Shown in pieces: positions 3,750-9,747 of a stretch of DNA of 64,000 bases. Source of the stretch: Cyanidioschyzon merolae. Its lineage: Eukaryota. The translations under genes were made by a program, and so were the position numbers. Location: the NCBI GenBank assembly GCA_000091205.1, contig AP006491.2. One strand, given 5' to 3'. How positions within the stretch are numbered: the stretch's first letter is position 1; every line of letters starts with the position of its first letter. The notes beneath the pieces were generated by a model. That model did no database searches, had not been told where the DNA came from, and was given only the letters and a program-made list of their open reading frames with translations.

Positions 3750-5522
3750 CTACGCCGCCCATCGGTGAACGCTTCCAGAGCGCCCACCTATATAGATCTC
3801 GTTGCGATCCTCGTGGTAGTAGACAGCGGTCACGTCACTGAGCGCTCGACGTTCCTCGAACGAGTCACGATGCGCCCGGATTCGGCCTAGGCAAAGTCCG
3901 GTAGGAATGTGTGCGATCCAGAGTGAGCCGCTGTGGACGTCGTAGATCTCCGAAAGCGGACGCTGCAGTTGACCAGCTCGCAACCGTTCACTGGAGCTAG
4001 TACCGGGTACCGATGCGAACTGGTGATCGCTCGTCGAAGAGGGTGCCTGCAACGTCGGTGTTCCTTTGGCGAGCGATGGTAGCGCAGGTCGTACCTGCGG
4101 ACGCACCCCTGACGCGCTACTATCCCCTGGGGCAGTGGCGCTTGCGTCAGGTGTCGGACCCAGCACAGGTGCTCCATCCATGGACGTCGACGTCGACGAC
4201 GACTGCGGCGTCACTGCGGTATTCGGGTCAGCGTCGGATGCGTCCGGATCGTCGTCACGCGGATGCTCATTCGCGTCGCTCGCTGCCTGATAAGATACCA
4301 AAATATCCTGTGCAGCGGATATGTAGAGGGTATTGTTCGCTGCTGCCGAGATGGCACGGGACGGATGCTGTCTCGAGAGCCGTTGAACAACGGGTCGAGC
4401 ACGAAAGTCCCAAACCTGAATCTCCTGATCCCGGAAGACAAGAAACAATTTGGTCTCGTACAGAAAGATGAAATGGTGAGGCGTCAGGTGCTGTGAACCG
4501 AGAAGCTCCTGCTCCGTACTGGTGCGCAGATCGACGATACGGAGGTTCACGCCCTCCTGTTTCACCAGCAGGCGATCGTGGAAGAGCTCGATGAACTCTA
4601 TCTTGCGAGATCGGTTCAGCAAGTAAAAGAGTTCATGTCGCACGGCGCCGGTTTCGATATCCACAAACTGGAGCGGCACATGGCTTCCGACGCGCTGATA
4701 GATGAGCAACATCACGCCCGGTGACACCTTGATCTCGGCGATAGAGCGACACGCGATCCGGTAGAGGCTTTGGTAGGTTGTCAGGTCCCATACTGTGTAG
4801 CTGCGATCGTTGGCACTGAAGGTAAGCACCTTGCCGTTGACATCGTCAAATTCGACAAACCCCGGCCAACTGAGGCATTCGCTCGTAAAGATAGGGATGC
4901 TGTCTTCAGGCTGGCCTCGCGCGATGGCGTCCATCGGGATGCTGCGACAACGAAGTCGCAGGAAGCGATCTTCGTGCCGCACGGAGACAGTGATGAGCGC
5001 TCGATTGGCCTTGTTGAGGAAGATAGAGCGCACGACTTCATCAGGGCTCAGGTTCAAGCAGCAGAGACGCTTTCGTGTAACAGTCTGGAACGCTGTACAG
5101 ACCCCGTTGGCCGTCAAGGTGAAGAGCAGATCGCCGAAAGCGACGATTTCTACCACGCCGGCACGCCGTTGAAGCAACGGAAGCGAGAAGCTCCGGTTGC
5201 TGTCGTTGGCGTCGTAGGTCTCGCGGAGACGGAGGCCGCGAAAGCGGCACAAGAGCGTTTGTCGATGCAACGCATGTTCGGGCAGAATGCCGGTCTCACG
5301 ACGACGCAGGGCATCGAGCGGCTGGAATCGCCACTGCAGCGCGGAGGAAGCACGCTGCAACCCGTGCCCTGCTCCAGCATTGAAACCGAGTTTCGATGCT
5401 GCTTCGATGGACACGGGCGTCGACGACAAGCCCACCGGCGCTGCCGCACATGAGAATGAACCGCAACCAAGTCTTCGTCGCTTCTTCGTCGCCTGGGTTA
5501 GAGGTTCACAAGCGTCAGCCAT
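3750..5522 (-). CDS. conserved hypothetical WD40/beta-propeller-like protein
   Basis: C-terminal ~590 aa of track ORF 3750..6482 reads like protein, with WD-like strands (e.g. 'EIQVWDFRARP', 'RSYTVWDLTTY', 'IYIGGRSGSVHRW'). The 5' ~320 codons are C/R/S-rich and non-protein-like, so I trimmed to the ATG at 5522 (MADACEPL...). Confidence 0.5.
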   Translation of the reverse strand: MADACEPLTQATKKRRRLGCGSFSCAAAPVGLSSTPVSIEAASKLGFNAGAGHGLQRASSALQWRFQPLDALRRRETGILPEHALHRQTLLCRFRGLRLRETYDANDSNRSFSLPLLQRRAGVVEIVAFGDLLFTLTANGVCTAFQTVTRKRLCCLNLSPDEVVRSIFLNKANRALITVSVRHEDRFLRLRCRSIPMDAIARGQPEDSIPIFTSECLSWPGFVEFDDVNGKVLTFSANDRSYTVWDLTTYQSLYRIACRSIAEIKVSPGVMLLIYQRVGSHVPLQFVDIETGAVRHELFYLLNRSRKIEFIELFHDRLLVKQEGVNLRIVDLRTSTEQELLGSQHLTPHHFIFLYETKLFLVFRDQEIQVWDFRARPVVQRLSRQHPSRAISAAANNTLYISAAQDILVSYQAASDANEHPRDDDPDASDADPNTAVTPQSSSTSTSMDGAPVLGPTPDASATAPGDSSASGVRPQVRPALPSLAKGTPTLQAPSSTSDHQFASVPGTSSSERLRAGQLQRPLSEIYDVHSGSLWIAHIPTGLCLGRIRAHRDSFEERRALSDVTAVYYHEDRNEIYIGGRSGSVHRWAA

Positions 5523-7532
5523 TGGGGTCGCTTCGACCGCGCCAGGCGACACGCGCTGGGATTGGTAGACTCGGGCTGGCCAGTATGCAGTCGTGCGTGC
5601 GCTCGTTTCTTGGCTACAAGTTGCAACATCGTTCGAAATACTTGAGCACTGACTAGACGTCAACGCTGGAAGAGGGAACAGCGTGGACGAAGACTCCGGC
5701 GAGCGCGCAGACTTGCCACGTGGCGAGGCATCTCCGGCAGGAGCGCCCGCATACGTGCGGGTTGCCCCCGGTCGTGGGCTCTGCGCACACAAGTACTGCG
5801 CCGCGTGCCGATCATCTTCGCTGAGCAGCGAACATACGTCACCAGCGAGCTCGGAAGCGCCCGCTGCGTCACTCAGAAGCGCCACAGCTTCTCGGCGCCA
5901 GCGTTCGCACGACGCATTTTCGAAACGCTGTCGGGGAACGTACACCACCGAAGGCGAAAGAAACACCTTGCTCTTTCCAGACCAAACCTGGCGCGGTCCG
6001 CAGTCAGTGCATGCACCCTTGGTACCGTCTGTGTGCACGGCGGAAGACATGAAGCCTGTTGACGGAAACAGGAACTTCACCTCGGGCGCAGTCAACCCAG
6101 GTCCAGGTGTCGACGTGTACTCGCGTGTCTGCACGACTTGTGTACAAAGCGCGTACGTACAGCGCACGTCCAGACGAGTTCTCAGTACCGCTTGTATTTT
6201 GTACGCGCGGTGCTTTCCCCAATACTCAAGGTTTGCACGAGTGTGTGCCCAGACAGACACGTATTCGCGAGCAGCGGGCGAACGGAGTCGCAGCGCAGGC
6301 ACCCCGTGCGGCCCTCCGCAGACTTGTAAAATCGCAACCGCTGCTGCCCTGACTGCGGGTATGAGCGGTGTGTCGCCCGCAGGCCGTTGCGATTTGGAGC
6401 GCGACTGGCGGCGCTGTTGCCGCGTCGAAAGCCGATAACGCCTGGAGGAGGCGGCGGCGGCGGCGCACCGGTGGTGCTTCAATGCACAATGCAGATCGCT
6501 GGGTGCAGATGGGATGAATATGGTCTAATTTGTATATTTATGGTATGTGCCATGGAGGCGGCGGCGGCATGCACGGTAGCCGAGTGGTCGCTGCTGATCC
6601 TGGGCGCGTGCACCTGCAGCAATCCCGCGGGAGATGCGCCGCTGCTGGCAACGCCTGGGGCAGCGGCTACCGCTCTGCACCAGACAGTGTGCCCTGACGT
6701 GCCACCAGCCTCCGATTCGTCATTCCGACGGAGACCAGGGCTTCTGTCTAGTCGGCGATTCGGTTGGGTAACGGGGCATGGCGGGCGCTGATCCCCGTTC
6801 AGGACACGATCCGGGACGACGGGTGCGTCGCCGGCTTCTTCGCTGTGCGGAGACGTGCGCATGCAATTGGGTATTGTTTGGAGGGCGTCGGATCGCTTCC
6901 GCACGAACCGCGGCATCCCCGAGAGCGTGGCGGGTATCGGTATTCGGAAGATCGTCCAGCAGCCAAGATGCACCAGAAACCAATACTCATGCTTCGCTCT
7001 GGAGAAGACGCTTCCTCCGTGCGATCCACCGGGTGCCTTGTGCCTGTCATGAGCATCCATAACGGTAACGCCAACGGCTCTAGCGCCCGCTTCGGCATGA
7101 CACCTCGTGAGCGGGCGTCTCTGTTGGCCCACACTGGTAGACGTCAACTCAAAGCACGCATCGCCCGACGCCGTGTCAGGACTCGCGGGCGGTGTCAGCC
7201 TCGATAGTCGGCGCACACAGACCTGCCCTGAGACCTCCGATACGCCCGATCGGGGACCGTTCGATACGCTGCCTCCCGCGAGCGCATCGGAGGCGAGAGC
7301 ACACCCAGCCAGCGGGCCCGGGGTGCCGTGCGCAGCGGCCAGGCGCGCGCGCACACACACGCGCACGCGTGGCATTCAGCAGTTTCGCACAACGCCACCG
7401 AAACGACGGCGTATGAGAAGACTATCGCGCTCACTTGTTTCGTACAGAGTACTTTACACGCTGCGACGCCCAGTGCGGTAAACTTGTCCCGAGAACGCTC
7501 TACTTCCTTCATAGCTCACTCAGAATTCACAA

Positions 7533-8696
7533 ATGCTCGTTTCGAGTACAGTTTTCGCTAACCACAAGGGCGGATGCGGCAAGTCGGTCCTGTTATTCCA
7601 GTCCGCTGCGGAGTACGCGCTGGCGCACCCTGATCAGCACGTACTGGTCGTGGACATGACCGTGGTTGGCGACCTGACGCGTCTTTTCCTCGGCGGAGAC
7701 TCGTTTGAGCGCTCTTCATCGGTAAGTTTGAGCGACTTTGTGGCTGTCCACGGAGGCACAACCAAACTCCTCTTTGATTGCCTCGCGTTCGAGCTGGGGT
7801 TCCAGTCCGGGGCGCTGCGCGAGACTGCGACCACAGCGAGTGGGAGCAGCGGCAGTGGCCCGCTCTCCTTCGTGAGTCGTTTGCGGCAGACGTTTGGCGG
7901 TGGCACGGGCAGTGAGGACAAGAGCGCTGGTGGCAGCGGAGGTGCCTACCGTTTCCCTGTGGAAAAATACCTGCTTCGTGTCGCAGACGTCAATACACAC
8001 ATTCCTGCAAATATCTACCTATCCATGTCGAGCGGTGGTGGATCCCAGCATCCGTTCCGGCTCACTGAGCGCCTCACTGTGGTCCAGGGCCTTCGCCGCG
8101 CTTTCCAGCAAGCGCCCGCCTCGTATAAGGTTCTGTTCGATACCGACGGCGACCTGCACTTCTCCGACTATACCCGGATCGCTATTGGTGTCGCAGACCA
8201 TTTGGTGGTGCCACTCTTCCCCTCGTTTACGGACTTCCACCGCGTCGAGACGTTTATGGAGGAGCTCTTCCAAATGCGTCAGAACGGAGAGACTGACGCC
8301 AAGGTACAGCTCATGGTCTGGAACAATGTCGATGTGCACTACAATCGGCCATGGTTGCCGGTATCCCGAAACGTGACGCCCACCAAGGCAGCTCAAACGG
8401 TGATTGAGAAACTCAACTCGCTACTGGCTGGGGTCGCAGCTCAGTATAGTACGCTTTTCGTGCAGCCCATTCCGGATAATGCAAGCCCCGTGGAAGCCAG
8501 TGAGCACTTTTCGGAAACGAGCTCCATGATCATGCGAACCTTCGGGGTAACCGGTATGGCTAGCGCGGATCTGGGCATTCCTTTTGCCTGCATGCAACCA
8601 GGCACTCTGACTGGTGGCGCCGTCGAGTACCACGTCAGCGCCGAAATGCTGGAGCTGCTACGCGCGAATGTGCGCGAGCTCGCCGATGTGCTCTGA
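7533..8696 (+). CDS. ParA/MinD-superfamily (SIMIBI) P-loop ATPase with deviant Walker A, unknown function
   Basis: ATG at 7533. N-terminal 'FANHKGGCGKSVLL' matches the deviant Walker A (xKGGxGK[ST]). 'HVLVVDMTVVGD' matches Walker A'. 'YKVLFDTDGDL' matches Walker B. No CxxC (NBP35/Mrp) or MinD-specific motifs. Confidence 0.6.
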   Translation: MLVSSTVFANHKGGCGKSVLLFQSAAEYALAHPDQHVLVVDMTVVGDLTRLFLGGDSFERSSSVSLSDFVAVHGGTTKLLFDCLAFELGFQSGALRETATTASGSSGSGPLSFVSRLRQTFGGGTGSEDKSAGGSGGAYRFPVEKYLLRVADVNTHIPANIYLSMSSGGGSQHPFRLTERLTVVQGLRRAFQQAPASYKVLFDTDGDLHFSDYTRIAIGVADHLVVPLFPSFTDFHRVETFMEELFQMRQNGETDAKVQLMVWNNVDVHYNRPWLPVSRNVTPTKAAQTVIEKLNSLLAGVAAQYSTLFVQPIPDNASPVEASEHFSETSSMIMRTFGVTGMASADLGIPFACMQPGTLTGGAVEYHVSAEMLELLRANVRELADVL

Positions 8697-9169: not shown

Positions 9170-9605
9170 ACAGCCCCCAGAGACTGGACTCTAGGATGGA
9201 CGTGACGCGCGGGTACCACTGGTACTGCTCGCAGCACCCGTCGCCTCTGTGTCCGGTAGTCTGTATCCTTGAAGATGGGCGCCCCCCAGAGACTGGACTT
9301 TAGGATGGACGTGACGCGCGGGTACCACTGGTACTGCTCGCAGCACCCGTCGCCTCTGTGTCCGGTAGTCTGCATCCTTGAAGATGGGCGCACCCCAGAG
9401 ACTGGACTTTAGGATGGACGTGACGCGCGGGTACCACTGGTACTGCTCGCAGCACCCGTCGCCTCTGTGTCCGGTAGTCTGTATCCTTGAAGATGGGCGC
9501 CCCCCAGAGACTGGACTTTAGGATGGACGTGACGCGCGGGTACCACTGGTACTGCTCGCAGCACCCGTCGCCTCTGTGTCCGGTAGTCTGTATCCTTGAA
9601 GATGG
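9170..9605. repeat. tandem repeat, ~109-bp unit x ~4
   Basis: Unit 'agactggact(c/t)taggatggacgtgacgcgcgggtaccactggtactgctcgcagcacccgtcgcctctgtgtccggtagtctg(t/c)atccttgaagatgggcgc(c/a)cccc' recurs at ~9181, 9291, 9399 and 9508. Confidence 0.9.
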
Positions 9606-9747
9606 GCGCACGCACGCACGCACGCACGCATACATACATACATACATACATACATACATACATACATACATACATACATACATACATACATACATACATA
9701 CATACATACATACATACATACATACATACATACATACATACATACAG
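9601..9747. repeat. microsatellite (CGCA)n followed by (CATA)n, ~31 units
   Basis: Direct reading: cgcacgcacgcacgcacgc followed by catacatacata... for ~125 bp. Confidence 0.95.

Follow-up and report, generated by a model that had tools for sequence, protein, structure and literature searches.

A long ParA-like ATPase in the nuclear genome of Cyanidioschyzon merolae belongs to a previously undescribed eukaryote-type family

Which ParA/MinD-type ATPases are encoded by eukaryotic nuclei, and can one of them stand apart from those already recognised? The eukaryotic relatives generally accepted so far comprise organellar MinD, the iron-sulphur carriers NBP35, Cfd1, Ind1 and HCF101, and Get3. In a 2024 review, ParA/MinD proteins figure as a family of bacteria and archaea (PMC11407121). 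The question is raised here by the gene CMI023C of the red alga C. merolae, which lies in a 64,000-nucleotide stretch of contig AP006491.2 (assembly GCA_000091205.1), hereafter the window, whose numbering is used throughout (Table 1). An initial annotation of the window had recognised a ParA/MinD-like ATPase of unclear affiliation and suggested either targeting to an organelle or horizontal acquisition. Our analysis places the protein in a discrete, previously undescribed eukaryote-type family of ParA ATPases, here called 'long ParA-like'. It is likely, in our judgement, that CMI023C is a functional nuclear ParA-type ATPase of this family which serves, in the cytosol or nucleus, as an ATP-driven dimer switch for some cargo.

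The gene model itself required attention. From residue 42 to residue 387 the open reading frame (ORF) matches CMI023C of C. merolae 10D (XP_005536221.1) with 100% identity, which marks the window as nuclear DNA of that alga; the reference entry is a 346-residue 'hypothetical protein' whose model begins at Met42. We prefer the longer version because an in-frame stop lies six codons 5' of the ATG at 7533, because the same starting methionine is found in the orthologues from a Cyanidioschyzon-like genome (86% identical) and from Cyanidium caldarium (72%), and because residues 1–41 are conserved across Cyanidium, Galdieria and the whole family and are modelled by AlphaFold with predicted local distance difference test (pLDDT) values above 90. 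The 387-residue ORF is thus the true CMI023C product, and the reference model, N-terminally short and apparently wrong in its annotation, deserves correction. Its truncation probably explains why CMI023C has so long remained a 'hypothetical protein'. The orthologue in Cyanidiococcus yangmingshanensis, F1559_004103 (223 residues), is likewise cut short at the N-terminus and its annotation also looks wrong.

The patterns of substitution indicate a live gene under strong purifying selection. Since synonymous differences have reached saturation (pS about 0.75), we compared proportions of nonsynonymous and synonymous differences (pN/pS) rather than the corresponding rates (dN/dS). In the comparison with the 86% identical orthologue, pN comes to 0.077 and pS to 0.75, a ratio of about 0.10; against Cyanidium the values are 0.178 and 0.76, a ratio of about 0.24. 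The reading of the locus as a pseudogene was rejected.

All three motifs first read in the ORF, NHKGGCGKS, VLVVDMT (from residue 37, nucleotide 7641) and VLFDTDGD, are indeed there. Their conservation was scored over an alignment of 26 family members. The Walker A motif, where the model has pLDDT values above 90, shows G13 and G16 in every sequence and K12, G14 and K17 in at least 90% of them; the Walker B stretch aligns with the Walker B region of MipZ and ParF. Among the invariant or nearly invariant positions are K12, G13, G14, G16, K17, D41, D47, G54, G55, N154, N160, D203, T204, D205, D234, R237, N264, P283, F309, F326, G348 and P350.

Table 1. Features of CMI023C and its surroundings, in window coordinates
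Feature	Position	Strand	Remarks
Coding sequence of ParA-type ATPase	7533..8696	+	ATG start, 387 residues, TGA stop; equals CMI023C plus 41 N-terminal codons
Strand β1 and deviant Walker A, FANHKGGCGKS, residues 8-18	7554..7586	+	K12 signature lysine, K17 P-loop lysine
Walker A' / switch I, VLVVDMTVVGD, residues 37-47	7641..7673	+	D41 invariant, D47 nearly invariant
Met42 codon	7656..7658	+	start in reference model CMI023C; starting here loses β1, P-loop, α1 and β2
Family-specific insertion after switch I, residues 55-145	7695..7967	+	from AlphaFold model
Walker B / switch II, VLFDTDGD, residues 200-207	8130..8153	+	D203 invariant; T204 and D205 nearly invariant
C-terminal half of ATPase core	8310..8693	+	predicted, pLDDT 94-98; motifs kept in family
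Upstream neighbour, large DUF7899 protein	3750-6482	-	715-850 residues called
109-bp repeat unit, 4.0 copies, 98% matches	9174-9609		about 480 bp 3' of the stop of the gene
Perfect (CATA)x29.5 microsatellite	9629-9746		yields spurious 'MYVCMYVC...' ORFs

Profile searches point the same way. Among Pfam entries the protein matches MipZ (6e-6, above the gathering score but over residues 185–251 only), AAA_31 (6.5e-5) and CbiA (2e-3), with no match to a MinD, NBP35 or Get3 model, and the PHROG 164 'ParA-like partition protein' profile is matched at 3.9e-15. The match to the NCBIfam ParA_partition model NF041546 (1.9e-7) reaches 30.9 bits where the cut-off is 180, and the best sequence match in the PDB is MipZ (0.013). 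These matches show that the Walker motifs are not coincidental. The deviant Walker A, the switch I and Walker B aspartates and the three-dimensional fold place CMI023C, so far as sequence can tell, in the ParA/MinD (deviant Walker A, SIMIBI) superfamily and among its ParA-type members, which bears out the original assignment for what is a red-algal nuclear gene.

An AlphaFold model, built with 26 diverse family members, has a pLDDT of 88.2 and a predicted template modelling score (pTM) of 0.86, and is predicted to contain the complete ParA core fold. Its best structural matches are partition or positioning ATPases, namely ParA, McdA, the pSM19035 delta protein and pNOB8 ParA, and Foldseek agrees. 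FleN, BcsQ, 3pg5, FlhG and NifH come after these in the structural ranking (17.8–19.6), followed by MipZ (16.5), Cfd1 (15.5) and Get3 (13.1–13.8). With the small bacterial and archaeal ParA and positioning ATPases (Soj/ParA type Ib, PDB 8ray and 2bek; McdA, 6noo; pSM19035 delta; pNOB8 ParA) CMI023C shares 14–17% identity, the deviant Walker A with its signature lysine, the aspartates of switch I and Walker B and, presumably, an ATP-sandwich dimer cycle. It differs from them in being a eukaryotic nuclear gene product and in being some 150 residues longer.

That surplus length appears in the model to lie mainly in a single insertion after switch I, at residues 55–145. This is predicted to comprise helices at 55–61, 66–73, 77–99 and 112–121 together with Gly/Ser-rich, low-confidence loops at 100–112 and 122–136, and its length varies within the family. 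The C-terminal half had been described as divergent, and that is true in the sense that no Pfam, NCBIfam or PDB sequence model extends past about residue 266. It is not true within its own family, where the motifs LMVWNNVD (N264), TPTKAAQ (P283), MRTFGVTG and LGIPFACM (G348, P350) and the helix at 370–387 are conserved, nor of the structure: in the model this part looks like a normal ParA C-terminal half whose sequence has diverged too far for the existing models.

Could the protein nonetheless belong to one of the named groups within the superfamily? With NBP35, Cfd1, Ind1 and HCF101 (the Mrp type) and with Get3/ArsA it shares the deviant Walker A P-loop and, by prediction, the fold of a dimeric ATPase. 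As had been noted from the outset, their distinguishing features are missing: the only cysteines, at positions 15, 83 and 353, form no CxxC motif that could supply iron-sulphur or zinc ligands, neither PF10609 nor PF02374 is matched, and there is no helical client-binding subdomain. Identity as MinD fails on the lack of a C-terminal amphipathic membrane-targeting helix, of a transit peptide and of any match to a Pfam or NCBIfam MinD model. The ParA of a ParABS system is rejected given the sub-threshold NF041546 score and the neighbourhood of CMI023C, which holds DUF7899, CNNM and PEX1-like AAA genes and no ParB or McdB gene or centromere. Membership of MipZ, in alphaproteobacteria a ParB-dependent inhibitor of FtsZ, is rejected too, the resemblance being confined to the Walker B/switch II pattern 'DTxG...PL...DF'. 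Finally, BcsQ, the label automatically assigned to CMI023C by JGI, falls short on the TIGR03371 cut-off and on association with cellulose synthase genes.

The wider family emerged from an exhaustive profile search of 1.84 billion protein cluster representatives. It yielded 380 representatives with E ≤ 1e-3, of which 105 had E ≤ 1e-10 and 20 had E ≤ 1e-30, and numerous matches, of 340–430 residues, were full length. Every named member is eukaryotic: there are four Cyanidiophyceae, a cryptophyte, a lycophyte and a cluster that includes a protein of Amoebophrya, the named sources including Galdieria, Hemiselmis tepida, MMETSP transcripts and a EukProt transcriptome shotgun assembly (TSA) sequence. 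The lycophyte gene sits on a 75-Mb scaffold of Diphasiastrum complanatum. To these can be added P0058, which 186 metagenomic contigs, from Tara Oceans and elsewhere, carry next to genes for Fcf1, a SET protein, ATP-citrate lyase and FKBP; judged by these neighbours its host is a compact eukaryotic genome, that of a marine picoeukaryote. When the genomes of 185,579 prokaryotic species were scanned for the family-specific DTDGDL Walker B pattern, there was no full-length relative, only seven loci matching over residues 1–103 of generic ParA, and neither an IMG/VR scan nor a BFVD fold search produced a viral or giant-virus relative. CMI023C itself displays all the hallmarks of the family, with N..P.N.YL, DTDGD(L), (V/I)WN, TP.K, F...S..MR.F, G.PF, the C-terminal helix and a start directly at β1.

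Some family members occur in larger proteins (the fusion and merged-model entries are P0028/P0171/P0172, P0103 and P0176). One cluster has an N-terminal thioredoxin with a CPPC motif and one protein has N-terminal ankyrin repeats, while a 1520-residue Amoebophrya model has the ParA-like protein joined to WDR3, probably because gene models were merged. On the picoeukaryote contig the downstream neighbour, Fcf1, is another small-subunit processome factor, which is probably a coincidence.

Where, then, are the nearest prokaryotic relatives? Searches restricted to the C-terminal halves led to a large family of prokaryotic 'ParA family proteins', about 349 residues long, in Legionella, Vibrio, Nostoc, Moorena, Desulfobulbaceae, Halobeggiatoa and Methanosarcina. 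Profile alignment of the two groups with hhalign gave a probability of 100 and an E-value of 4e-44 over 320 columns, the C-terminal half included, where the motifs correspond column for column. The two are thus homologous over their full length, are of similar size and both begin directly at β1; they also share a GG after switch I, N..P.N.YL, F...(L/M)R.F..(A/T)G, G.P and the C-terminal helix. Identity between them is nevertheless only about 21–22%, the insertion is shorter in the bacterial proteins, and the latter have DTNPSF at Walker B and DMCPQAN at switch I where the eukaryote-type proteins have DTDGDL and DMT..GD. In a neighbour-joining tree the eukaryote-type clade received 94 of 100 bootstraps, the bacterial type 98 and a Cyanidiales subclade 84. 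Taken together, these comparisons indicate that the bacterial family is the sister group of the eukaryote-type one.

The two also differ in genomic setting, CMI023C being a nuclear gene and the bacterial one a solitary cargo gene of prokaryotic mobile elements, small plasmids and islands among them. Across phyla the bacterial proteins keep 64–81% identity, with members in Legionella, Vibrio, Nostoc, Moorena and Methanosarcina. The Legionella gene adjoins a MobA/MobL relaxase, the Vibrio gene directly follows an integrase, and others are carried on Col-type plasmids, 4–5 kb in size, of the Enterobacterales Proteus, Salmonella and E. coli, where the gene makes up around a quarter of the plasmid. 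No ParB or conserved neighbour accompanies the bacterial genes, the small ORFs downstream being mutually unrelated; no NCBIfam model matches these proteins above its cut-off; and PADLOC gave no defence-system match for them or for CMI023C. No function can therefore be carried over from the sister family to CMI023C. Because of this relationship, it is possible that the whole eukaryote-type family is of ancient bacterial origin.

Place of action and ancestry can now be weighed together. In CMI023C β1 runs from residue 2 and the P-loop from residue 12, so that any cleaved presequence would destroy the P-loop. A start at β1 is typical of the family, being seen in 49 of 65 full-length, Met-initiated members; the other 16 have short heterogeneous extensions (acidic stretches, a thioredoxin domain, one signal-peptide-like segment in Hemiselmis). 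The protein sequence contains neither a hydrophobic segment long enough to span a membrane nor a type 1 peroxisomal targeting signal (PTS1), and its C-terminus, ...LRANVRELADVL, is modelled as an acidic, packed helix (pLDDT about 96) rather than a MinD-type amphipathic tail. Lacking presequence, transmembrane segment, PTS1 and MinD-like tail, the protein is most likely cytosolic or nuclear. An organelle-targeted MinD or ParA relative that places the division site or positions nucleoids in plastid or mitochondrion, as the initial annotation had it, could draw on the fact that named members come mostly from plastid-bearing lineages and on a 25-residue hydrophobic, signal-peptide-like N-terminal extension (MPRGWGWALLFCFALVAQF...) in a Hemiselmis tepida cluster (P0016/P0164), cryptophyte targeting being something that may differ. 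We nevertheless think it highly improbable for CMI023C, given the start at β1 shortly after an in-frame stop, the initiating methionine common to the orthologues and the predominance of extension-free members, along with the absence of a MinD model match; in addition, the family includes the cluster with Amoebophrya, an organism not known to have a plastid. Horizontal gene transfer (HGT) of a bacterial mobile-element ParA gene, recent and specific to Cyanidiales, would place CMI023C among the roughly 1% of genes in these extremophiles that are reported to be HGT-derived, and has in its favour the nature of the nearest prokaryotic relatives. Rossoni et al. 2019 (PMC6629376) list a Cyanidioschyzon HGT orthogroup, OG0002871, 'MRP family ... 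parA', that might correspond to CMI023C; it is described as Cyanidioschyzon-only and Mrp-like and so fits CMI023C poorly. The distance from the bacterial family is large, CMI023C nests with cryptophyte, lycophyte, alveolate and picoeukaryote sequences, and its third-codon-position GC content (GC3), at 0.68, is close to the 0.59–0.67 of neighbouring long ORFs. Furthermore, the search for orthologues in related algae found the gene not only in the Cyanidioschyzon-like genome and in Cyanidium, where the order DUF7899 – ParA-like – CNNM transporter – PEX1-like AAA ATPase is the same as in C. merolae, but also in Galdieria partita and G. sulphuraria. A recent acquisition of this kind is accordingly very hard to credit. 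Within Cyanidiophyceae inheritance has been vertical, and bacterial contamination was rejected as an explanation.

What might such a protein do? The residues for nucleotide binding and dimerisation, K12, K17, S18, D41 and D203, are intact. By analogy with the established behaviour of characterised ParA/MinD ATPases, ATP binding would produce a nucleotide-sandwich dimer in which K12 reaches the ATP of the partner subunit; the ATP-bound dimer would dock on a surface, a matrix or a partner; hydrolysis stimulated by that partner would return the dimer to monomers; and a switch of this sort could position or assemble a cargo. Partner binding is likely to fall to the insertion at 55–145 and to the C-terminal motifs peculiar to the family. 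The same fold and ATP-dependent dimer might alternatively, without any positioning, help to assemble or regulate one specific complex, in the manner of FlhG/FleN, which sets flagellar number, of BcsQ, which acts with cellulose synthase, or of Get3, which hands over clients. Large family-specific insertions beside switch I would suit such a role, as would the ankyrin and thioredoxin fusions elsewhere in the family, suggestive of protein interaction and redox functions respectively, and an acidic protein (isoelectric point 5.6) with no evident basic DNA- or membrane-binding tail. Against it, the structures most similar to the model belong to true partition or positioning ATPases, and nothing points to a partner complex, so that we hold it to be rather unlikely.

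The reading of CMI023C as a functional cytosolic or nuclear dimer switch has its own difficulties, which should be set beside the evidence for it. No partner analogous to ParB, MinE or McdB was identified. The DNA-binding residues of Soj/ParA, such as Soj R189, cannot be mapped onto this acidic protein since sequence models do not align its C-terminal half. A few family members (P0026, P0041) have lost K12 or K17, meaning that ATPase activity is not family-wide. Most members lie on unnamed short environmental contigs, the label 'eukaryotic' resting on around ten that are named or identified by context, and the tree is a neighbour-joining one with a small outgroup of generic ParA proteins. A search of the accessible literature found CMI023C mentioned in no paper, and no link between ParA-like proteins and these algae.

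Downstream of the gene lie the two repeat arrays listed in Table 1; ARAGORN found no tRNA genes anywhere in the window.

The broadest interpretation is one that we put forward with considerable doubt, as a possibility: that this is the first ParA-type cargo-positioning system in the eukaryotic cytoplasm or nucleus, derived from an ancient bacterial mobile-element ParA and kept in several algal lineages. Were it true, chromatin or the surface of an organelle would provide the matrix on which ATP-bound dimers place or partition a low-copy structure, and in C. merolae the candidate cargoes would be the single-copy organelles or a nuclear body. The alga is amenable to genetic manipulation, and each of its cells has a single nucleus, a single plastid and a single mitochondrion; the function is therefore directly testable by localisation and knockout. 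With a conserved, presequence-free ParA-type protein shared by red algae, a cryptophyte, a lycophyte, an alveolate cluster and a picoeukaryote, the superfamily would gain another eukaryotic branch.
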